DNA of 64,000 nucleotides. Source: Bacteroidia bacterium. GTDB lineage: Bacteria > Bacteroidota > Bacteroidia > J057 > JADKCL01. Where the stretch lies: positions 243,142 through 307,141 of the forward strand of contig JACJYV010000004.1 in NCBI GenBank assembly GCA_020635905.1, given 5' to 3'. Position numbers and translations under genes: made by a program. Shown one piece after another: positions 23,297 through 33,935 of the stretch. The notes below the pieces were generated by a model that saw only the letters and a program-made list of their open reading frames with translations, was not told where the DNA came from and ran no database searches. Numbering within the stretch: position 1 is the stretch's first letter; every line of letters starts with the position of its first letter.

Positions 23297-23407
23297 GTTA
23301 ATTTTGATTTTTATCAGAGACCGAATTTCTCTATTTCCGTGCAATTGTCAAACCCGATTTGCAAATAAGATTTCATCCACCCGCGGATTTCTCTATTTTT
23401 GCTGGAA

Positions 23408-23917
23408 ATGATCCCCAATCTGAGCATTCGAAACTGGATTTCACTGGCCCTCACGGTCCTTTCCCTGGCTTTTTTGTATCCGGGCCTGACTACACCCGTG
23501 CTGACTCTGGATATTTCCCTTGATCTGCTTTTCACCCGTTCCACGGTGATGCACGAAACCCAAAGTGTGGTTTCCTCCATTGAAAGCCTGTTTGAGAATA
23601 AAAACGGATTTGTGGCTTTTCTGATTCTTCTTTTCAGCATCGTGGTGCCCATTTCCAAAGCCATGCTCATGCTGTGCCTGTTCCTGATCAAAGCGCTGCG
23701 CCCCAGGGCGGAAATCCTGCACAAAGTGGTGTATATCATTGGGAAATGGTCCATGGCCGACGTTTTTGTGATAGCCATTCTGATTGCCTTTATGGCGATC
23801 AGGGCTAATGAAAACGTCCATGCGACCCTCCACAATGGCTTTTATTACTTTCTGAGTTACTGTCTGATTTCCCTGGCCGCCATTTCCGTGGCCGACTTCA
23901 AAAGCCTGGAAAAATAA
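23408..23917 (+). CDS. paraquat-inducible protein A (PqiA)-like membrane protein, single module
   Basis: PqiA-type motifs: FLILLFSIVVPISK and IGKWSMADVFVIAILIAF. Start at ATG 23408 (TTG 23399 is an alternative). Confidence 0.65.
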   Translation: MIPNLSIRNWISLALTVLSLAFLYPGLTTPVLTLDISLDLLFTRSTVMHETQSVVSSIESLFENKNGFVAFLILLFSIVVPISKAMLMLCLFLIKALRPRAEILHKVVYIIGKWSMADVFVIAILIAFMAIRANENVHATLHNGFYYFLSYCLISLAAISVADFKSLEK

Positions 23918-23925
23918 TCCCATCC

Positions 23926-24930
23926 ATGGAAAAGTTTACTGGAATTGCCTTTCCCCGAGCTGCCCTGGTGGGAAATCCTTCTGACGGTTATCACGGCAAG
24001 ACCATTGCGTTTGTGTTCAGCAATTTTCAGGCAGAAGTGGAAATTGAGCCCTCAGATTTGCTGGAAATCGTGCCTGGAGAGCGGGATAATTTGACTTTTA
24101 GCAGCCTGGGGGAATTGGTTCAGGGAATTGATCTGTATGGATATTACGGGGGAATTCGCCTGATCAAAGCCGCTTTGAAGGTGTTTTACACCTATTTTAC
24201 CCGCGAAGGCTTCAAAGTTCCTGCGGCCAATTTTCGCATCAGCTATCGCTCCAATATTCCCAATCGCCTGGGCCTGGCTGGCTCCAGCGCCATTATTACG
24301 GCCACATTTCGGGCGCTGATGGGTTTTTATAAAGTGGAATTACCCCCGCCTTTGCTGGCTATGCTGGTTCTTTCCGTGGAAACCAAAGAATTGAGGATTC
24401 CAGCAGGTTTGCAGGATCGGGTGGCTCAGGCCTATGAGCAGCCCGTTTTCATGAATTTTTCCCGGGAAAAATTCGATCCTGTATTGGGTGGTCAATATGA
24501 GCCCTTTCCCAAAAGCTGGTTGCCTGATATTTATCTGGCTTTCGACCGCGGGGCGGCCCTGGGCTCAGAAGTGAGTCATGCTGATTTACGGGAGCGTTTT
24601 GAGCAGGGCCAGGGTGGAGTGAGGCAGGCCATGCATGGCTTTGCCCAGCTCACAGATCAGGCCATGGGCCTGATGCGGCAGGGGAGAGGCCGGGAAATCG
24701 GGCCTCTGCTGGATCAGAATTTTGAACTTCGCAAAACGATCATGGCCCTGAATCCGCGGGATGTCCGCATGGTGGAACTGGCCCGCGGATGCGGGGTGAG
24801 CGCTAAGTTTACGGGGTCAGGAGGAGCGATAATTGGCACGTATGAAGGTGAAAATCAATTTAATCACCTGAAAACTGAAATGAAAAAATCGGGCATTGAG
24901 GTGATCAAACCTGCTGTTATGGGGAATTAG
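23926..24930 (+). CDS. GHMP kinase, glucuronokinase-like
   Basis: GHMP motif NIPNRLGLAGSSAI. Also a motif set I recall from plant glucuronokinase: GNPSDGYHGKTI, GYYGGIRL, AGLQDRVAQAY, MVELAR...KFTGSGGA. Confidence 0.72.
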   Translation: MEKFTGIAFPRAALVGNPSDGYHGKTIAFVFSNFQAEVEIEPSDLLEIVPGERDNLTFSSLGELVQGIDLYGYYGGIRLIKAALKVFYTYFTREGFKVPAANFRISYRSNIPNRLGLAGSSAIITATFRALMGFYKVELPPPLLAMLVLSVETKELRIPAGLQDRVAQAYEQPVFMNFSREKFDPVLGGQYEPFPKSWLPDIYLAFDRGAALGSEVSHADLRERFEQGQGGVRQAMHGFAQLTDQAMGLMRQGRGREIGPLLDQNFELRKTIMALNPRDVRMVELARGCGVSAKFTGSGGAIIGTYEGENQFNHLKTEMKKSGIEVIKPAVMGN

Positions 24931-24949
24931 AAATTGGTAAATTGCAGAC

Positions 24950-25327
24950 ATGAGTGAGGAAAATCAGCCTTTACTGCAAATCGTCAACTACTGGAATGTC
25001 AGCTCAGTGGGGTTGATTGTGGAGTTGTATGCACCCGCAGAAGGCCCGTTGACGGATTTGATCCTGTGGTCGCATGAATTGCAGAAGCAGTGGATGGTGC
25101 GTTCCAGGCTGATTTACAATCATGCTTTGGATGAGCAAACCCGCTTTCCAGGTGAGCGGGAGCAGATGCTTTTCCTTTCCTTTGAAGATGCAGAGAAAGC
25201 CGATCATTCCCGTTCCAAATTGCTGTTGAATGAGGCCAAGGGCATTTTTCAATACCTTTTTCAGCCCCTGGGCCATTCCACTGATCCGTTGGTGGGCGAC
25301 AGGTTGATTTCAATTAAGGAAGATTAA
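24950..25327 (+). CDS. hypothetical protein
   Basis: 125-aa ORF 19 nt downstream of the GHMP kinase on the same strand. No recognisable motif. Confidence 0.45.
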   Translation: MSEENQPLLQIVNYWNVSSVGLIVELYAPAEGPLTDLILWSHELQKQWMVRSRLIYNHALDEQTRFPGEREQMLFLSFEDAEKADHSRSKLLLNEAKGIFQYLFQPLGHSTDPLVGDRLISIKED

Positions 25328-25336
25328 ACTTTAGCT

Positions 25337-25924
25337 ATGAGAGGTTTTAGCAATCCCGACGAATATTTTGCCAATCAGGATCATTTTGCTGCTGAACAAT
25401 TGCGGCTACGCGAGATTTTCCTGAAGACAGAACTCAAGGAAGAAATGAAATGGGGAGGCCCCATTTATACCCTCAAAGGCAAGAATGTGGCCGCTATGGG
25501 CGCTTTCAAATCTTATGTGGGCATCTGGTTTCACCAGGGAGTTTTTCTGAAAGATCCTGCCAAAGTGCTGATCAATGCCCAGGAAGGTGTGACCAAAGCC
25601 TTGCGGCAATGGAGATTTGATTCCATGGCTGAGATTGACGAAAAATTGATTTTGGAATATCTGGCAGAAGCCATTCAAAACATGAAGGAGGGCAAGGTAA
25701 TGAAACCCCAGCCCAAACCTCTCCTTATTCCCTTAGAACTGGAAAATGCGCTCAAAAAAGATGCTGTTTTGAACGAAAGTTTTGAGTCACTGAGCCAGGG
25801 TTGCAAGAAGGAATATGCGGGCTACATCCTCGAAGCCAAACGCGAAGAAACCCGTCTTGCCCGGGTGGAAAAGATCATTCCCATGATCCTGAAAAAAGTG
25901 GGTTTGAATGACAGGTATAAATAA
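25337..25924 (+). CDS. DUF1801 plus YdeI/OmpD-associated family protein
   Basis: 195 aa. N-terminal YdhG-like region (EEMKWGGPIYT...VAAMGAFKSYVGIWF). C-terminal YdeI-type region (KKEYAGYILEAKREETRLARVEKII). Confidence 0.7.
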   Translation: MRGFSNPDEYFANQDHFAAEQLRLREIFLKTELKEEMKWGGPIYTLKGKNVAAMGAFKSYVGIWFHQGVFLKDPAKVLINAQEGVTKALRQWRFDSMAEIDEKLILEYLAEAIQNMKEGKVMKPQPKPLLIPLELENALKKDAVLNESFESLSQGCKKEYAGYILEAKREETRLARVEKIIPMILKKVGLNDRYK

Positions 25925-25997
25925 GCTTCGGGCTGCCCCAGGCTTCAAGCCAATTGAGGAACTTACAACTCACAACTTACAACTAATCCCCAACCAA
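25925..25997. repeat. heptanucleotide-phased intergenic tract (R3)
   Basis: Runs stop-to-stop. Parses as gcttcgg gctgccc caggctt caagcca attgagg aacttac aactcac aacttac aactaat. Confidence 0.75.
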
Positions 25998-26864
25998 CTA
26001 TTCCAAATCTAAACTCCTCAACCATTCCCGCAAGGCAGGACCTGTGCCTTCCTTTTTCAGGCCGAAGTGAACGTTGGCTTTGATGAAATCAAGGGTGTTG
26101 CCCACGTCGTGCCGTCGGCCTTCGAAACGAAGGCCGTACATGGCCCGGTCACGGAGCATGGCCCGCATGGCGTCGGCCAGTTGGATTTCCTGGTGAAGAC
26201 CAGGTTGGGTTTGGTCCAGATAATCAAAGATTTCTGCAGTAAAAATATAGCGCCCGGCAATCGCCAGGCGCGATGGGGCTACCTCCTGACTGGGTTTTTC
26301 AACCCAGTCTTCCGCCAGCCAGAGATTTTCAGAAATCTCTTTTCCTTTCAATATTCCATAACGACTGACCATTTCCATAGGAACTTCCTCCAGGGCAATT
26401 ACCGGGTCCTGGTAACGGTCAAAAACCTTCATCAGTTGGGCGGTGACAGGGGTGGAATCTGATTCAACAATTGAATCACCCAGGAGTACAGCAAAAGCCT
26501 CATTGCCAACATGATAACGGGCGTAACGTATAGCATCACCCAAGCCGTTCAGCTCCTTTTGCCAGACAAAATGAATGTCTGCCAGATTGGAAATCCTGCG
26601 GATTCTTTTCAGCAATTTTTCCTTGCCCTGTTCGGCCAGTTGTTGCTCCAGTTCCCAGTTGCGGTCAAAATGTTCCTCAATGGCGCGCTTGCCCTTGCCA
26701 ATGATCATCAGAATGTCCGTAATGCCCGAAGCCACTGCCTCCTCCACCACATATTCGATCACAGGCGTATCCACCACTGGCAACATTTCCTTGGGCTGCG
26801 ACTTCGTCGCAGGCAGCATCCGCGTTCCAAATCCCGCAGCAGGTATGACGGCTTTTTTGATCAA
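25998..26864 (-). CDS. galU: UTP--glucose-1-phosphate uridylyltransferase (GalU-type sugar-1-phosphate nucleotidyltransferase)
   Basis: 288 aa. The N-terminus KAVIPAAGFGTRMLPATKSQPKEMLPVVD is the classical GalU signature. TTG start at 26864. Confidence 0.88.
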   Translation of the reverse strand: MIKKAVIPAAGFGTRMLPATKSQPKEMLPVVDTPVIEYVVEEAVASGITDILMIIGKGKRAIEEHFDRNWELEQQLAEQGKEKLLKRIRRISNLADIHFVWQKELNGLGDAIRYARYHVGNEAFAVLLGDSIVESDSTPVTAQLMKVFDRYQDPVIALEEVPMEMVSRYGILKGKEISENLWLAEDWVEKPSQEVAPSRLAIAGRYIFTAEIFDYLDQTQPGLHQEIQLADAMRAMLRDRAMYGLRFEGRRHDVGNTLDFIKANVHFGLKKEGTGPALREWLRSLDLE

Positions 26865-27037
26865 GTTCAGATTTTAGATTTTAGATGGATAGATTTTAGA
26901 GGTTAGTCTTGAGTCCTTAGTCCTTAGAGGTAAGATAAAAGACAGTTCAAGTTTCGCCACTCGCCACTCGCCACTCGCCACTTGAAACTCTGAACTTACA
27001 ACCACCCGCTCGCAGCTCGAAGCCAGCAGCTTGAAGC
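26865..27037. repeat. heptanucleotide-phased intergenic tract (R4)
   Basis: 23 consecutive units between the galU start and the MIOX stop. 11 end in AG, 7 in AC (including TCGCCAC x4) and 5 in GC. Only 3 units are not exactly 7 nt. Confidence 0.85.
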
Positions 27038-27850
27038 CTAAAAATAAACGGGGGCTTTGCCGAGATATTTCTCAATGATGGGCTGATAATACTCCATCAG
27101 TTGGTCGAGGTTGTAGGTGACGGGAGCTTTGGTGTACAGATCAAACAGGTTGAATTCGCGCACCCACTCTTTGTACTGCTCGTCGCGGTCATCATCGAGG
27201 AGGGAATAGGCTCCGTGGCTGTGCCAGGGGTAAAATGAGTGGTAACGGACCATGATCATGCCCGCTTCAGGGATGCGGTTTTCTGGATGGTGGCTCAGCA
27301 CCTGAAACAGATATTCGTCGTGTCCCCAGGCTTTGAGGCAATTGTCAATGCCGCAATTGGCTTCGTACATGCCCAGGGGGGTAAAATAATCCGGGTTTTC
27401 CATGTCGGGATTCAACTCATTGAATTCGGGAAAAACCACGCCCTGCGGCAGCTGACATCCCACCAGAAAAATATCGCCCACCAGGCCCCATTGCTCTTTG
27501 AGCGAGGTGCCGTCCTCGTCGCAACCCCACAGGTACATGACCTTGCCCAGGTCATGGATGAGGGCCACCAACTGAAACCAATCGGGTTTTCCGGCACGTC
27601 TGGCGCCTTCTGCGGCCTGCAAAAGGTGCTGTACATTGGGCAGGTCCATGTCGGGATCGCTGAGATCCACGAAGTCATTCAGGCCCTCCAGGGCCTGACG
27701 GATGGTCATGGGATGGTCGAAGGTCAGGTATTTGGCCTGCATCCTTCTGACGTAGGCAACCGTCTGATTTTGGCGCATTTTGCGGTAATTTTCGCGCACA
27801 GCGGGCAGCAAATGCCCGGTTTCGTAATTGCGGAATTGGGTCTTTTCCAT
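27038..27850 (-). CDS. myo-inositol oxygenase
   Basis: About 270 aa with MIOX/HD-type di-iron motifs: LIHDLGKV, AWGHDEY, RYHSFYPWH, and C-terminal DLYTK. Trimmed to ATG 27850; the longer ORF reads into the MITE. Confidence 0.85.
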   Translation of the reverse strand: MEKTQFRNYETGHLLPAVRENYRKMRQNQTVAYVRRMQAKYLTFDHPMTIRQALEGLNDFVDLSDPDMDLPNVQHLLQAAEGARRAGKPDWFQLVALIHDLGKVMYLWGCDEDGTSLKEQWGLVGDIFLVGCQLPQGVVFPEFNELNPDMENPDYFTPLGMYEANCGIDNCLKAWGHDEYLFQVLSHHPENRIPEAGMIMVRYHSFYPWHSHGAYSLLDDDRDEQYKEWVREFNLFDLYTKAPVTYNLDQLMEYYQPIIEKYLGKAPVYF

Positions 27851-27867
27851 GGGGTGAAGATAATAAA

Positions 27868-27989
27868 GGGAACCTCTAAAAACAAAGAAGATCAAGGCGG
27901 ACGCAGGTGAAGAAAGCGGAGTTTACTACCGTAAATGAGCATTTCTGAGCCAAGTCCAACGCAGAGATTCGAAGTTTGTAGAGGTTCCC
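27868..27989 (+). mobile_element. MITE-like 122-bp element, copy 2
   Basis: GGGAACCTCTAAAAAC ... GTTTGTAGAGGTTCCC, with 15 of 16 TIR positions matching. Flanked by the direct duplication TAAA (27864-27867 and 27990-27993). Confidence 0.72.
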
Positions 27990-28093
27990 TAAATTTTGCG
28001 GCCTTCCCCAAGGCGTGCTTTCTCATTTGAATAAATGTGAATATGCTTTAGCTTTGCCTCAACGATGCACGCAAAAAACACATACCCAGCCGT

Positions 28094-29452
28094 TTGGCTA
28101 AGCAGATGATGGTTTGGCTTTTGATCAAAGTACCCTGGTATTTTTTACGGGCCATGTGGGCTTTCCTGCTTGGTTTGGGCAAGGGGAAAGGTCAGACCTG
28201 GTATGCAGGGGAATTTCTGGTTGCGCGGGATGATTTTCGCCTTTCTGCACCCGAAAAAGAAAGCCGTTTGGTGGGGTTGAAGATTTATGTGCGGACTTTG
28301 AGAGCCATTTTCAAAAATTCCAAACCCTCCCTGGAAAAGCTGGCTGACGCGTCCGTGGGAATTTATGATTCGCGCATGGCCAACCTCAAACTGCGCACGG
28401 AGTACGTGGAAGCCCAAAGTGGAGAAAAAGTAGGTACTTTTATCAGCAGTTCGGGCTTGTTGTATGGGGAGGGATTTTTGCAAAAAATCCTGCTTTTCTG
28501 CATGCTGAGTGGATTTTTCTCCTTTCTCTGGCCCTTCACGATTTTGAGCAAATACAGGGCCAATCTGGCTCAGATCATGCCCGATACGGTGCGGGTAATC
28601 AATCTGTTGCGCATCCTCAGAAAGCATAAAATCAGCAGGCTGTATTACTTTTTCATTTTTGAAATTTATGCCAATGTGGCCGCTCAGGTACTGATGAGCG
28701 AAGGAATCACCCTCCTGAAAGTCACGTCCATGTCGCCCCTCACTTTCCATGCGAGGGTGGTGATTGCCAGTGAATTATGCGTGAATACGGCTTACCAGAT
28801 GGAGGAAACCCGCATCTTTAAAGACACTTTGTTTGTAGGGAAATTTCACCTCTGGGCTCCTGAAATGTACATGGATCACATTGAAAAGTACCGCGAGGCT
28901 GATCCTGAAGCTACTCCAAAACATGTATTGGGGTATTATTCAAGTGGTTATGAATTGAGGTTCAGCCTGGGCGAATCACATACGGGTTTTTTCGGCGATC
29001 CAGAATCTGACGACATGTTGCGGGAATATCTGCGGGAATATCTTTTGAGCCATCCTGAAGTCAAACTGAAAATCTTTTTGCATCCCTTTGAAAAGCGCTC
29101 AGATGAGCGCTATGCTCAGGCCACGAAGTATTATTTTGACCATTTTCAGGGCTGTAATATTGAGATTATGGGTCGGGATATTTCCACCGTGGGCAGTCTG
29201 GAATTGGTGGATGTAGCGCTTTCTGTTTTGTCCAATTCTCTGGCTGACCGCCTCTATTTTGGTTACAAAGGTCTTTTTACTCCGTTCACCGTGGATCGCC
29301 TGCCTGCGCCCGGCACTTCGCTGGAGGCCATTTGTGCCAAATCCAAAGCGCATTTATTTGAGTTACTTGACCGCAGTATGGCCCAGAGCACGGATGAGTT
29401 TTTCAGGGAAAATAAGATTGATAATTACCGTTTCAGGCGAAATAAAACCTGA
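28094..29452 (+). CDS. hypothetical protein (N-terminal TM; C-terminal half vaguely GT-B/TagF-like)
   Basis: 452-aa ORF with a TTG start; ATG 28106 is an alternative. No firm motif. The C-terminal pattern KIFLHPFEKR...VDVALSVLSNSLADRLYFGYKGLF resembles the HP...SS..-E core of GT-B transferases. Confidence 0.5.
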   Translation: MAKQMMVWLLIKVPWYFLRAMWAFLLGLGKGKGQTWYAGEFLVARDDFRLSAPEKESRLVGLKIYVRTLRAIFKNSKPSLEKLADASVGIYDSRMANLKLRTEYVEAQSGEKVGTFISSSGLLYGEGFLQKILLFCMLSGFFSFLWPFTILSKYRANLAQIMPDTVRVINLLRILRKHKISRLYYFFIFEIYANVAAQVLMSEGITLLKVTSMSPLTFHARVVIASELCVNTAYQMEETRIFKDTLFVGKFHLWAPEMYMDHIEKYREADPEATPKHVLGYYSSGYELRFSLGESHTGFFGDPESDDMLREYLREYLLSHPEVKLKIFLHPFEKRSDERYAQATKYYFDHFQGCNIEIMGRDISTVGSLELVDVALSVLSNSLADRLYFGYKGLFTPFTVDRLPAPGTSLEAICAKSKAHLFELLDRSMAQSTDEFFRENKIDNYRFRRNKT

Positions 29453-31891
29453 TCAGATCAATTCCACCCAAACTTCTTCCTTCACCCAGCCCAAATCCAC
29501 CCAGGGTAGATTTTCCATGAATAATTCCGTTCCAGAAGGGATTCCAAGGGGATCAAAAGAACTGATTGGCGCCACAAATTCGAAGCGGTCACGTTCCACT
29601 TTCACAGGCACGCCATTCACCCTGACCGTTTCACCCAATTGATTGAATCCGTGCAGATAGATCCTCAGGTAGCGGAAATGGGTGGGAAAAGGACCTTCTG
29701 CGCCCTGAATGTGGATTTTCTGAGTCTTGCTGTCCAGTTGGATTATTCTGCGGTAAAATTCTCCCCGCTCGAAAGCGTAGCTTTCTCCATCGTCTTCGTA
29801 GTAGAGAAATTCAGAATCCCCCTTTCCTTTGTAAACATGCAGATTGAGGCGGGTTTCAGGTTTCATACCTGCATGCAAAACTGCCGATTGCATGGGTATG
29901 ATTGCTCCACCTTTGACAAAGAGCGGCAAAGTGGTTTTAGGACAATCTGTGACGATTTCCTGATCGCCTTCAAAGGGAGTATCACGGAATAATTCATACC
30001 AGTTGCCTTCGGGCAAATATACTTTGGTCAGTTCCTTGTGACTTTCCACAGGCGCAACCAGTATGGAAGGACCAAACAGGTACTGATTCTGGTAGGCGGG
30101 ATGGTAAATTTTTTCGTTGTGGGGATGCTCAATTGCGAGGGAACGGGCAACGGGAATTCCTGATTGAGAGGATTCATAAAAGCTTGAATAGAGATAGGGC
30201 ATCAGCTTGTATCTCAGGCGAATATAGTTGCGGGAAATCTCTTCAACCTCCTCCCCAAAACCCCAGGGTTCCGCGTCGCGGCTGTTGATCATGCTGTGTC
30301 CGCGGAAAAAGGGAGAGAAGGCCGCCAGGCAAATCCAGCGGGCAAAAAGATTCACATTGGCGGTACCAATAAATCCACCCGCGTCGTAGCCAGCAAAGGG
30401 GATTCCAGTCAGGCCCAGGCTGTTGACCAGGCGCACCCCGGCCATCATGTGAGCATCTGAGGCCGTATTATCGCCCGTCCAGACCGCGCTGAAACGCTGG
30501 GTACCTGCATAGCCCGCCCGGGTCAGGATGAAAGGCCGTTTGCCCCCCAGGTGCTTTTGTGCTCCTTCGTACGTGGCACGGGCCATTTCCATGCCATACA
30601 CATTCCGGGCTTCACGGTGACTGGCTCCCCGTCCTTCCAGGTCAAATTCGATCAGATTGGGCATAAACTGACCCCAGGTGGCGGGCTCATTCATGTCGTT
30701 CCAAAAGCCCTGAATGCCCTTTTCCGTGTAGAAACTGAATTTATCCCCCCACCAATCGCGGGTTTGGGGATTGGTGAAATCGGGAAAATGGCTCCAGCCC
30801 GGCCAGACAGCGCCTTCATAATCGCTTCCGTCGGGATATTTGAGGAAAAGATCCTGCTTTTTGCCTTCTTCGTAGGGTGCATATCCGGGTTCCACTTTGA
30901 TACCCGGATCAATGATAACCACCACTTTGAAGCCCATTTTTTCCAGTTCGGCCACCATTTCCGCGGGTTGGGAAAACCGCTCAGGATGAAAGGTAAAGAC
31001 CTTGTAGGCATCCATGTAGTGAATGTCGAGGTAAATCACATCTGCGGGAATGTCTTTTTCGCGAAAAGTTCGGGCAATGGTAAGAACTTCGGTATCAGGA
31101 TAATAGCTGTAGCGGCATTGCTGGTAGCCCAGGGCCCATTTGGGCGGCAGGGGCATGCGTCCGGTCAGTTGGCTGTATTCGTAGAGAATTTCGGCGACCG
31201 AATCAGCGGAGATGAAGTAGTAACCCATATTGCCGCCGTCGGCGGCAAAGGAGGAAAAGCGATTATTGGAGGCCCCGAAATTGAAATAGCTTTTGCTGGA
31301 ATTGTCGAAAAAGATGCCATACTGACGCCCAGAGTGGACTCCCAGATAAAACGGAGCGGTAAAATAGATTGGATCAGCATCGTCTGGATAGCCAAAATGG
31401 TCGGTGTTCCAGTTGGTGTAACCACTGCCGCGACGATCCAGATTGCCCGTTTTTTCACCCAAACCCAGAAAACGTTCCCCGGGCTGAAGTTTTTTATAGG
31501 TGCTTACTTCGTCTCCAATCCAGGAAGTGCCAAATGCAGCGTCATCCTCATTCAGCAATTCGCCTCTGGAATTATAAAAATTCAGACGCAGGGGAGATTT
31601 TTGCAGGCGAAGTTCCAGGTCAGCGGTCTGAATTTGCAGAAATTCGCCCTGATCAGAAACGAGGCAGAGATTTTCGGCTGGTTCGGCAATCACGGCGTAG
31701 GAGTGAGGCGTAAAATCCTCAATCAGGCGGCGAATGCGGATACGAATGGTCTTTTCAGAATAGGTTAGCACCTCCATTTCGGCTTCTGCAGTCTGCAAAC
31801 GAATTCCTGAAGGGATTTTTTCCCAGGAAAGCATTTCGCTCAGAGACTGATTCATATTGGACCGACGGGCGCGTATGGGTTTTTCCGGCAT
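29453..31891 (-). CDS. glycoside hydrolase family 31 alpha-glucosidase
   Basis: 812 aa. GH31 catalytic signature GFWNDMNEP plus a FTRAGYAG..R..AVWTGDN region. ATG 31855 is an alternative start. Confidence 0.9.
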   Translation of the reverse strand: MPEKPIRARRSNMNQSLSEMLSWEKIPSGIRLQTAEAEMEVLTYSEKTIRIRIRRLIEDFTPHSYAVIAEPAENLCLVSDQGEFLQIQTADLELRLQKSPLRLNFYNSRGELLNEDDAAFGTSWIGDEVSTYKKLQPGERFLGLGEKTGNLDRRGSGYTNWNTDHFGYPDDADPIYFTAPFYLGVHSGRQYGIFFDNSSKSYFNFGASNNRFSSFAADGGNMGYYFISADSVAEILYEYSQLTGRMPLPPKWALGYQQCRYSYYPDTEVLTIARTFREKDIPADVIYLDIHYMDAYKVFTFHPERFSQPAEMVAELEKMGFKVVVIIDPGIKVEPGYAPYEEGKKQDLFLKYPDGSDYEGAVWPGWSHFPDFTNPQTRDWWGDKFSFYTEKGIQGFWNDMNEPATWGQFMPNLIEFDLEGRGASHREARNVYGMEMARATYEGAQKHLGGKRPFILTRAGYAGTQRFSAVWTGDNTASDAHMMAGVRLVNSLGLTGIPFAGYDAGGFIGTANVNLFARWICLAAFSPFFRGHSMINSRDAEPWGFGEEVEEISRNYIRLRYKLMPYLYSSFYESSQSGIPVARSLAIEHPHNEKIYHPAYQNQYLFGPSILVAPVESHKELTKVYLPEGNWYELFRDTPFEGDQEIVTDCPKTTLPLFVKGGAIIPMQSAVLHAGMKPETRLNLHVYKGKGDSEFLYYEDDGESYAFERGEFYRRIIQLDSKTQKIHIQGAEGPFPTHFRYLRIYLHGFNQLGETVRVNGVPVKVERDRFEFVAPISSFDPLGIPSGTELFMENLPWVDLGWVKEEVWVELI

Positions 31892-31921
31892 GGAATTTTA
31901 TTCAAAAGGGAAAAAAGCAGG

Positions 31922-32908
31922 TTAAATGGAAAGGATTTTGGAGATCCGCAGGATGTCGGGGTCAACTCCCGAACCTTTGCGAATGGCCTCTGTAATAGGC
32001 GAGTAGGTGATTTTATCATAAAGCAAGCCCACCATCTGACCTTCCCTGCCTTCCATCAATCCTTCCACTGCAGCCACACCCAAACGGCTGGCTATCACCC
32101 GGTCATAGCTGCTGGGGCTTCCGCCCCTTTGCAAATGCCCCAGAATGGTAACTTTGGCATCGTAATTGGGGAGAATTTCCTTGACTTTGGCCGCCACCTC
32201 AATTGCAGAACCCAGGGTGCCTCCCTCAGCTACGATCACCAGGCTGCTGCTTTTGCCGCTCAATTCCCCGGCTTCAAGAATTTTGACAATATCATCTATG
32301 GTGGTTTCTTCCTCAGGAATGATGGTAGCCACTGCACCCGTGGAAATACCTGCCCGCAGGGCGATAAATCCTGCGTCGCGTCCCATTACCTCAATGAAAA
32401 ACAGGCGGTTGTGGCTGGAAGCCGTATCCCTGATCTGGTCAATGGCCTCTACTGCCGTATTGCAGGCCGTATCAAAGCCAATGGTAGCCTCCGTGCCGCG
32501 CAAATCGTTGTCAATGGTGGCAGGTACGCCCATCACGGGTATGCCAAAGTTTTGGTGAAAGGCATTGGCTCCGGCAAATGTACCGTCACCTCCAATGGTC
32601 ACCAGGGCGTCCACACCTGCTTTTTGCAGGTTTTCAAAGGCCTTCTCCTGACCTTCCCGGATTTTGAATTCGAGGCAGCGGGAAGATTTGAGTACGGTGC
32701 CTCCACGATCGAGAATCCAGGCCACTGAACGGGCGTTCAATTCCTCCATTTCGTTCTGAATGATCCCCGCATAACCCCGTTTGATGCCCGTAACCTTTAT
32801 TCCGTAGTAGATGCAGGTCCTGACCACCGCCCGGATGCAGGCATTCATGCCCGGCGCATCGCCGCCAGAGGTAAGTACCCCGATGTGTTTTACCTTAGAT
32901 TCCAACAT
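31922..32908 (-). CDS. pfkA: ATP-dependent 6-phosphofructokinase
   Basis: 328 aa. Motifs IGVLTSGGDAPGMNA, IGGDGT, PATIDND and MGR are all present. Confidence 0.93.
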   Translation of the reverse strand: MLESKVKHIGVLTSGGDAPGMNACIRAVVRTCIYYGIKVTGIKRGYAGIIQNEMEELNARSVAWILDRGGTVLKSSRCLEFKIREGQEKAFENLQKAGVDALVTIGGDGTFAGANAFHQNFGIPVMGVPATIDNDLRGTEATIGFDTACNTAVEAIDQIRDTASSHNRLFFIEVMGRDAGFIALRAGISTGAVATIIPEEETTIDDIVKILEAGELSGKSSSLVIVAEGGTLGSAIEVAAKVKEILPNYDAKVTILGHLQRGGSPSSYDRVIASRLGVAAVEGLMEGREGQMVGLLYDKITYSPITEAIRKGSGVDPDILRISKILSI

Positions 32909-33033: not shown

Positions 33034-33154
33034 GGGGACCTCTAAAAACAAAGAAGGTCAGGGCGGACGCAGTTCCAGAAAGCGAAGTTTACCGGGGTAA
33101 ATGAGCATTTCTGAAACAAATCCAACCCAGAGATTCAAAGATTTTGGAGTTCCC
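33034..33154 (+). mobile_element. MITE-like 121-bp element, copy 3
   Basis: Homologous along its length to copies 1 and 2. Flanked by the direct duplication TAAA (33030-33033 and 33155-33158). Ends 19 nt before ATG 33174. Confidence 0.7.
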
Positions 33155-33173
33155 TAAAGAAAATAAGCTAAAA

Positions 33174-33935
33174 ATGGTTACAAAACCTGCCCATACATCG
33201 CATGTCAACCCGAACGTTTCCGTGGACTGCGTCATATTTGGATTTGATTCTGAGGATTTGAAAGTGTTGCTGATTGAGCGGGGATCGCCAGAAAACGGGG
33301 ATCAAAATTCAACTGCTGGTAAATATGTTTTACCCGGCGACCTGATTCGCAACGACGAAAATCTGGACCAGGCTGCAGAGCGGGTTCTCAACGAATTGAC
33401 GGGCCTGAAACGCATTTTTCTGGATCAGTTTCATGCCTTTGGAGACCCTGAAAGGGTGCGTCGGCCCGAGGATCAGCAGTGGCTTTCCACTGTGCGGGCA
33501 GAGCCCGACGCCCGGGTAATCACCGTGGCTTACTATTCTTTGGTTAAAATTGATGATTATCAGCCCCAGCCTTCTTCTTTTGCCCGCAAGGCAGAATGGG
33601 TACTGGTCAATGAGATTCCTCAGTTGGGATTTGACCATAATGAAATTCTCAACCGCGGAATTTACGCTCTGCGTTCCAAACTGCGGACTCAGCCTGTGGG
33701 TTTTGAGTTGTTGCCTCTCAAGTTTACCCTGGGGCAATTGCAGAATTTGTATGAAAAGATTCTGGGCAATGAACTGGATAAGCGGAATTTCCGTCGTAAA
33801 ATGCTGAAACTGGGGGTTTTGATTCCCCTGGAAGAGCGTCAGCAGGGAGTGCCCCACAAGCCTGCCCAGTATTTTGAATTCGACAAGGAGAAATACGAAC
33901 AGGTGTCGAAGGAGGATTTAAGCTTCGTTTTTTAA
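33174..33935 (+). CDS. NrtR-family regulator (degenerate Nudix domain plus C-terminal winged HTH)
   Basis: The Nudix box is degenerate (GDLIRNDENLDQAAERVLNELTG). C-terminal FTLGQLQNLYEKILGNELDKRNFRRKM is the NrtR-type wHTH signature. Start trimmed out of the MITE. Confidence 0.8.
   Translation: MVTKPAHTSHVNPNVSVDCVIFGFDSEDLKVLLIERGSPENGDQNSTAGKYVLPGDLIRNDENLDQAAERVLNELTGLKRIFLDQFHAFGDPERVRRPEDQQWLSTVRAEPDARVITVAYYSLVKIDDYQPQPSSFARKAEWVLVNEIPQLGFDHNEILNRGIYALRSKLRTQPVGFELLPLKFTLGQLQNLYEKILGNELDKRNFRRKMLKLGVLIPLEERQQGVPHKPAQYFEFDKEKYEQVSKEDLSFVF

Follow-up and report, generated by a model that had tools for sequence, protein, structure and literature searches.

A stretch of 64,000 nucleotides from the metagenome-assembled genome of a Bacteroidia bacterium (830-kb contig JACJYV010000004.1; the stretch is hereafter called the window) harbours, within 4 kb, genes for a myo-inositol oxygenase (MIOX), a GHMP-family sugar kinase and a GalU-family uridylyltransferase. 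We propose, with a probability of roughly 0.55, that the products of this locus convert myo-inositol to UDP-glucuronate (UDP-GlcA) in three steps, by a route whose core would be a kinase-GalU salvage operon and to which MIOX would have been added in one lineage of the Bacteroidota. Inositol would be imported, by an SSF (sodium:solute symporter) transporter in relatives, and MIOX would convert myo-inositol and O2 to D-glucuronate. The kinase would then phosphorylate D-glucuronate with ATP at the anomeric carbon to give glucuronate-1-phosphate (GlcA-1-P), and the associated GalU would combine GlcA-1-P with UTP to form UDP-GlcA. The product would presumably supply glycan synthesis without the involvement of UDP-glucose dehydrogenase. 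In the Bacteroidota lineage that includes the window genome, MIOX appears to have been placed beside the kinase-GalU operon, often together with a sodium:solute symporter. What the genes are, how their families are related, how their linkage is conserved and which residues mark the clade are established observations, described below, and the route is our reading of them.

Three enzyme families at one locus

A sequence-only reading of this DNA had placed the three enzymes within 4 kb. In the open reading frame (ORF) map the kinase, two small ORFs, GalU and MIOX all lie where that reading had put them, and profile searches in Pfam and NCBIfam matched the three families. At NCBI the kinase is called 'GHMP kinase', the uridylyltransferase 'GalU' and the oxygenase 'Myo-inositol oxygenase'. 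As enzyme classes, MIOX corresponds to EC 1.13.99.1 and glucuronokinase to EC 2.7.1.43.

The MIOX protein matched Pfam PF05153 over profile positions 3-245 of 249 (E 8.4e-89, 297.9 bits against a cutoff of 25) and is 48% identical to mouse MIOX (2huo, E 2e-72); its NCBI gene model is identical to the ORF. The motifs HDLGK, WGHDEY and RYHSFYPWH, listed for the oxygenase in the sequence-only reading, are all present. In the alignment H75, H99, D100, K103, H177, H204 and D237 of the window protein are invariant with the mouse enzyme, whose di-iron ligands we take to be H98, H123, D124, H194, H220 and D253 and whose substrate lysine we take to be Lys127 (2HUO). All six di-iron ligand positions and the substrate lysine position are kept. 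We propose that the window MIOX turns myo-inositol into D-glucuronate, and a Bacteroidota homologue from Flavobacterium johnsoniae yields glucuronate upon expression in E. coli (PMC10294642).

The kinase is composed of the GHMP N-terminal domain (PF00288, E 1.7e-11) and the GHMP C-terminal domain (PF08544, E 1.9e-5). It is 38% identical over 327 amino acids (aa) to an Arabidopsis thaliana record (P0122, E 5e-67). An Arabidopsis sequence was used as a probe only, and the record that it retrieved, 'putative glucuronokinase [Arabidopsis thaliana]', is 99% identical to that probe. The best match among other GHMP kinases in the PDB was a mevalonate kinase at E 2e-12, and all NCBIfam equivalogs for other kinases scored far under cutoff with the window kinase. 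Glucuronokinase itself had no model in the profile library and no structure in the PDB. Grouping with galacto- or mevalonate kinases, which would have spoken against the sequence-only reading, was not observed, and by sequence the window kinase is nearer to glucuronokinase than to other GHMP kinase classes. The four motifs that this reading had connected with plant glucuronokinase were recovered (GNPSDGYHGKTI, GYYGGIRL, AGLQDRVAQAY and KFTGSGGA). Their defined residues are invariant with the enzymes of Arabidopsis and Vitis, the final Ala of AGLQDRVAQ being nearly invariant, and a 13-sequence alignment with these two plant enzymes contained 69 invariant columns that include all four motifs. 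A test for phosphate-binding motifs found both GLAGSSAI and KFTGSGGA. Members of the family are 36-38% identical to the plant enzymes, and glucuronokinases from plants and zebrafish that are about as distant in sequence act specifically on glucuronate (PMC2823444, PMC3938481). The substrate of the window kinase is presumably D-glucuronate.

Homologues of the kinase in 'a few bacteria' were reported by Pieslinger et al. in 2009 (PMC2823444). The family is larger than that paper suggests, since a word-indexed search returned at least 8000 proteins, 406 clusters at 50% identity were counted at E<=1e-30, and the kinase is found in at least 558 GTDB species. The expectation that homologues of MIOX and glucuronokinase are uncommon in bacteria held in so far as they occur in a minority, but they are not very rare. 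Homologues 50-56% identical to the window kinase carry the label 'glucuronokinase' at JGI. A recent transfer of the kinase from eukaryotes was considered and found unlikely in view of the 406 clusters, the distribution over at least five phyla and the identity of merely 36-38% to plants.

The uridylyltransferase passed the GalU equivalog model TIGR01099 narrowly (349.6 bits against a cutoff of 326.8) and is 40-49% identical to proven UDP-glucose pyrophosphorylases (UGPases). It keeps G11-x-G13-T14-R15, K25/E26, Q102, D130 and E189-K190 in the numbering of the Pseudomonas aeruginosa enzyme PaUGP. The same catalytic and nucleotide-binding residues, save the variable x of GxGTR, are kept in all 67 kinase-associated homologues, and the earlier assignment of a GalU-type uridylyltransferase at this position is borne out. 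The window protein was unmatched by UDPGP (PF01704) and matched solely NTP_transferase-type families, and is therefore not a UDP-sugar pyrophosphorylase (USP) of the eukaryotic type. The kinase-associated GalUs scored 302-369 bits on TIGR01099, as against 386-425 for characterised enzymes, and two of them fell under the cutoff (314.7 and 302.5). In a neighbour-joining tree the 67 associated proteins, the window protein among them, were monophyletic with respect to 16 unlinked GalUs, namely four enzymes that have been characterised and 12 encoded on plasmids (from Bacillota, Pseudomonadota, Thermodesulfobacteriota, Actinomycetota and one archaeon).

The clade is also distinguished at individual positions. 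The window GalU carries W101, D110 and S131 where canonical enzymes carry R, H and D. Arg101 is present in 15/16 unlinked GalUs and in none of the 67 associated ones, which have W, Y, H, F or P instead, and His110 is replaced by Asp in 56 of the 67. Position 131 is Thr or Ser in 65/67 associated proteins (Thr in 64) compared with 1/16 unlinked ones, the latter having Asp in 11/16 and Thr in 1/16. An acidic residue 131 is not present in every GalU; the enzymes of E. coli and Klebsiella have Val. In PaUGP, Arg101 connects the active site with the interface of the tetramer, and R101A/K variants lose both activity and tetramer (PMC11005391), while Asp131 coordinates the glucose moiety and D131A is almost inactive (PMC11796359). 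Loss of an acidic side chain from the sugar pocket would be expected if a C6 carboxylate must fit, and we infer that the associated GalU accepts GlcA-1-P. One of the unlinked proteins, encoded on plasmid pCBA1230-02 (L162) of Halolamina sp. CBA1230, has its gene flanked by those for the UDP-glucose 6-dehydrogenase AglM on one side and a UDP-glucuronate decarboxylase on the other, and keeps R101.

Linkage of the three genes across bacteria

The kinase was used to retrieve 80 GTDB loci by alignment, whose neighbourhoods were compared. In 65 of these the kinase is followed directly downstream, on the same strand, by a homologue of GalU that shares 50-68% identity with the window protein. The median gap between kinase and GalU is 16 bp in the 59 loci with complete ORFs, all 59 being co-directional. 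Clustering of all neighbouring ORFs from the 80 loci gave no other conserved neighbours; the kinase and GalU families alone are conserved. Linked loci are distributed over Bacteroidota, Verrucomicrobiota, Planctomycetota, Lentisphaerota and Spirochaetota, and pairwise identities of the kinases correlate with those of the GalUs (r 0.68, a value reached in 0/999 Mantel permutations). Three or four of the 15 loci without GalU end about 1.1 kb or less from the kinase. No alternative nucleotidyltransferase was found next to the kinase in these 15, the neighbours being phosphoesterases, PQQ-propeller proteins and others.

The pair is also found outside the chromosome and within a single protein. Among 72,556 plasmids only plasmid 1 of Rufibacter tibetensis has a kinase homologue, DC20_RS21850, with galU, DC20_RS21845, immediately downstream, and of all plasmid matches to the window GalU the product of this gene ranks first (55% identity, as against at most 51% for the other 574). 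A metagenomic protein of 626 aa (P0368) consists of a GalU-like domain, 37% identical to the window GalU and with a 'GLGDA' motif, fused to the kinase; other long kinase matches have an N-terminal domain of the zebrafish type. Cultured strains with the pair include Rufibacter tibetensis 1351 (on the plasmid), Mariniphaga sediminis SY21, Maribellus maritimus 5E3 and Draconibacterium sp. IB214405. The evolutionary core is proposed to be a two-gene glucuronate-salvage operon, kinase then GalU, in five phyla. The suggestion that a GalU-type enzyme takes the place of the eukaryotic USP, put forward in the sequence-only reading, gains support from the conserved operon, the GalU-like::kinase fusion and the distinct clade.

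For the linkage to MIOX, 11 MIOX contexts were sampled, starting from the closest MIOX proteins and counting the window. Kinase and GalU lie within 4 kb of MIOX in five of them, which are the window and loci L147, L149, L151 and L153; relative to the window, the kinases of these relatives are 50-58% identical and the MIOX proteins 66-69%. The kinase-GalU operon is intact and convergent on MIOX in all four relatives. In the window two unrelated genes interrupt it, and GalU is now found 173 bp downstream of MIOX in the same orientation. The genes that intervene are different in each case: the 125-aa ORF and the YdeI-like gene of Table 1 in the window, PPK2 and a trypsin-like protease in L147, GH1 in L149, and GH1 and a 230-aa ORF in L153. 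L151 has none, the gap being 4 bp, and there the SSF and MIOX genes overlap. Proximity retained through such different rearrangements argues for selection. As for co-occurrence of the genes across Bacteroidota, which had been suggested as a check, it is upheld for the adjacent kinase and GalU (65/80) and for the three genes together at 5/11 MIOX loci, but MIOX joins the pair only in one Bacteroidota lineage.

In L151, L156, L157 and Chondrinema litorale the gene immediately ahead of MIOX encodes a sodium:solute symporter, L149 and L153 have one close by, and at other loci an MFS or GRP transporter is near MIOX. A transporter in this position fits import of inositol followed by ring cleavage, and the symporter probably imports inositol. 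On the Chondrinema litorale plasmid (L172, 6294-11096) the SSF symporter, MIOX and an alpha-glucuronidase stand in a row, two sources of glucuronate being adjacent. A metagenome scan with MIOX gave 64 loci, mostly on contigs under 5 kb or intron-containing eukaryotic contigs, and none had the kinase or GalU.

The features of the locus are collected in Table 1. The start of galU was set at TTG because the catalytic GxGTR loop is otherwise left out.

Table 1. Genes at and around the locus in the window.
Feature	Position	Strand	Remarks
PqiA-like membrane protein, half-size	23399-23917	+	PF04403 E 1.6e-19; ends 8 bp ahead of kinase start
GHMP kinase, glucuronokinase family	23926-24930	+	334 aa; proposed step 2
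125-aa ORF	24950-25327	+	between kinase and galU; no Pfam/NCBIfam match; probably insertion, outside pathway
YdeI-like protein	25337-25924	+	195 aa; DUF1801 PF08818 E 9.5e-18 and OmdA PF13376 E 4.9e-16; probably insertion, outside pathway
GalU-family uridylyltransferase, kinase-associated clade	25998-26864	-	288 aa, TTG start; proposed step 3
Myo-inositol oxygenase (MIOX)	27038-27850	-	270 aa, ATG start; proposed step 1
452-aa ORF	28094-29452	+	divergent from MIOX; no Pfam/NCBIfam match; singleton cluster 'hypothetical protein H6581_15460'
GH31 alpha-glucosidase-like enzyme	29453-32908	-	adjoins cluster
PfkA-like protein	33144-33935	+	named by eye from sequence; followed by NrtR-type Nudix regulator

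The two small genes between kinase and galU had been described as of unknown or YdeI-like function, and this description stands. The 125-aa ORF is a singleton 90% cluster, annotated 'hypothetical protein H6581_15440', with no homologue in about 90 related loci, and the YdeI-like protein was not found in any related kinase or MIOX locus. The 452-aa ORF likewise had no homologue in the related loci checked, and all three were rejected as conserved members of the pathway. A Pmp3-domain protein is encoded just upstream of the PqiA-like gene on the opposite strand, and the PqiA-like gene may be co-transcribed with the kinase. The spacer between MIOX and galU (26940-27000, minus strand) contains the heptamer GTGGCGA four times in tandem, then CTAAGGA twice and several AAAATCT-like repeats, just upstream of the galU TTG start; these repeats may be a regulatory or slippage-prone element. 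In a scan of 23300-28200 for sigma-70 promoters and terminators, made with a tool that lacks Bacteroidota promoters, matches did not exceed the shuffle expectation and none fell in the relevant spacers. Genes for Ugd, UXS, an SSF transporter, inositol-phosphate synthase and uronate catabolism were searched for in the 64-kb window and none were found, nor were iol genes seen there.

The two GTDB kinases most closely related to that of the window (L003:287-5819 and L004:7954-10812) lie tight against a Metallophos+CBM9 phosphoesterase, with a PhoD-like phosphatase as a further close neighbour in L003, and neither locus has GalU or MIOX in reach. These phosphoesterases hint at a link to the scavenging of phosphate esters, perhaps inositol phosphates. 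In about seven Bacteroidales loci (L005, L009, L044 and about four more) the 0-3 kb ahead of the kinase contain co-directional genes for a PAP2 phosphatase, a PMT_2/ArnT-like glycosyltransferase and a GT2 enzyme, which could constitute a polyprenyl-phosphate-sugar route consuming the UDP-sugar product. In Prolixibacteraceae-type loci (L047, L060, L075, L078 and about ten others) the region 2-5 kb upstream of the kinase and GalU contains galactokinase, GalT, aldose 1-epimerase and a GntR/LacI-type regulator, and the gene immediately ahead of the pair encodes an AMP-binding ligase.

Weighing the proposed route

Several observations weigh against the proposed route. MIOX was present within 10 kb in 0/80 kinase-retrieved loci, and the pair is missing at 6/11 MIOX loci (L150, L152, L155, L156, L157 and L158); the three-gene link is thus lineage-restricted. 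In the window itself the kinase and GalU genes are convergent, 1.07 kb apart and not co-transcribed. The pair might salvage glucuronate derived from polysaccharides, with MIOX and its transporter serving inositol catabolism, chiefly via a uronate isomerase or dehydrogenase encoded elsewhere and proximity reflecting loose co-regulation only. The absence of MIOX from all 80 loci favours this division of functions, as do the six MIOX loci with merely a transporter or regulator nearby, the alpha-glucuronidase that adjoins SSF-MIOX in Chondrinema litorale, and the GH1 and GH31 glycosidases that neighbour the clusters. We nevertheless consider it unlikely, because five independent arrangements hold MIOX within 4 kb of the pair, one of them at 4 bp, and no genes for a uronate isomerase or dehydrogenase turned up in the 64 kb of the window or among the genes annotated next to the clusters. 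In that reading, too, steps 2 and 3 of the proposed route would stand. That three unrelated genes came to lie within 4 kb by chance might be argued from the window, where kinase and GalU are encoded on different strands and separated by two unrelated genes, but the recurrence in independent loci (65/80 and 5/11), the plasmid copy and the fusion protein effectively exclude it.

Other reservations concern the third step. The substitutions of the clade are not plainly carboxylate-friendly, in that H110D adds a negative charge and R101W removes a positive one. The set of unlinked controls is without any GalU from Bacteroidota or the Planctomycetota-Verrucomicrobiota-Chlamydiota (PVC) group, so that clade and linkage are partly confounded in the comparison of associated and unlinked proteins. 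The archaeal GalU of Halolamina, beside a UDP-glucose dehydrogenase, also has both D110 and T131, and these residues are therefore not diagnostic of the use of GlcA-1-P; H110D and D131T were accordingly given less weight as direct signs of specificity for GlcA-1-P. At 14 loci of the Prolixibacteraceae type the pair has Leloir genes at a distance of 2-5 kb, which could indicate an ordinary role of GalU in UDP-glucose metabolism, and the presence of these genes is probably a matter of lineage synteny. On this evidence GalU could be a plain UDP-glucose pyrophosphorylase, with the kinase acting on another sugar (e.g. galacturonate) or passing its product to another enzyme, and the pair would make no UDP-GlcA. 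The name GalU at NCBI, the passed equivalog cutoff, the intact set of catalytic residues and the identity to proven UGPases all agree with such a role. A lasting head-to-tail tie to one kinase in five phyla, a shared plasmid and a protein fusion are, on the other hand, unexpected for a housekeeping gene, and Arg101, essential in PaUGP, is missing from all 67 associated enzymes. The kinase is far nearer to proven glucuronokinases than to any other kinase, and the linkage to MIOX points to glucuronate specifically. We hold a pair devoid of UDP-GlcA synthesis to be improbable and retain the three-step route from myo-inositol to UDP-GlcA as the preferred reading. A wider proposition is that the kinase-associated GalUs constitute an unrecognised bacterial family of UDP-glucuronate pyrophosphorylases, carried with glucuronokinase in a widely distributed and horizontally mobile operon of two genes, fed with imported myo-inositol via MIOX in a Bacteroidota lineage, and representing the complete bacterial counterpart and possibly the source of the plant route. 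This remains tentative, and we would place its odds somewhat below even.

Known systems and significance

The plant route (MIOX, then glucuronokinase, then USP) has the same chemistry and step order as proposed here, and the window kinase, 38% identical to Arabidopsis GlcAK1, has its motifs in common with the plant enzyme. The third enzyme differs, being a prokaryotic GalU-family protein of about 290 aa in place of a USP of about 600 aa; the genes are clustered, with an SSF transporter attached in relatives. Zebrafish and Xenopus DrGKUP resembles the bacterial pair in that a glucuronokinase is physically coupled to a short bacterial-type nucleotidyltransferase presumed to make UDP-GlcA, an activity that could not be demonstrated as a pyrophosphorylase in the zebrafish fusion (PMC3938481). 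The animal N-terminal domain is, however, of another nucleotidyltransferase lineage, the fusion proteins matching the P0390 type and not GalU, and in bacteria the partners are separate genes except in P0368. Canonical GalU/UGP enzymes (E. coli, P. aeruginosa, H. pylori, B. subtilis YngB) share fold family, length and catalytic residues with the window type, which differs in its separate clade, its substitutions (Arg101 to Trp, His110 to Asp, Asp131 to Ser/Thr), its lower family scores and its genomic bond to a glucuronokinase homologue.

Bacterial salvage by an anomeric kinase and a nucleotidyltransferase is exemplified by AmgK-MurU and by Bacteroides Fkp. In Solitalea canadensis, a member of the Bacteroidota, the GHMP kinase GalK and a glucose-1-phosphate uridylyltransferase (GPUT) salvage xylose (PMC11267548). 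Such pairs, also present in Bacteroidota, resemble the present one in that a sugar-1-kinase followed by an NTP transferase bypasses de novo synthesis, and they differ in sugar and kinase subfamily and in the upstream oxygenase that would here make the sugar from a cyclitol. The classical iol pathway (IolG) channels myo-inositol into central metabolism by NAD-dependent dehydrogenation and ring hydrolysis. It shares the starting substrate, but does not cleave the ring with O2 and does not lead to a nucleotide sugar. A full-text literature search returned no account of a kinase-GalU operon in bacteria, of a cluster of all three genes or of a GlcA-1-P uridylyltransferase of the GalU type. Active bacterial MIOX and bacterial kinase homologues were already known, and we would rate as new the clustered, GalU-using version of a known route.

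UDP-GlcA is the precursor of capsules, glycosaminoglycan-like polymers, UDP-xylose and lipid A modifications, and to our knowledge textbooks let it arise in bacteria solely via oxidation of UDP-glucose. One-pot synthesis of UDP-GlcA at present depends on plant GlcAK and USP, and a soluble bacterial glucuronokinase with a small GlcA-1-P uridylyltransferase would, if our reading is true, be useful for this purpose. There would also be consequences for annotation, as NCBI now files these kinases as 'GHMP kinase' or 'mevalonate kinase' and their partners as 'GalU'. The bypass through kinase and uridylyltransferase would constitute a second route to UDP-GlcA in at least hundreds of species of polysaccharide-degrading phyla, and it would connect the synthesis of surface glycans directly with glucuronate and myo-inositol from the environment, the sources being phytate, inositol lipids and exudates of plants or algae.

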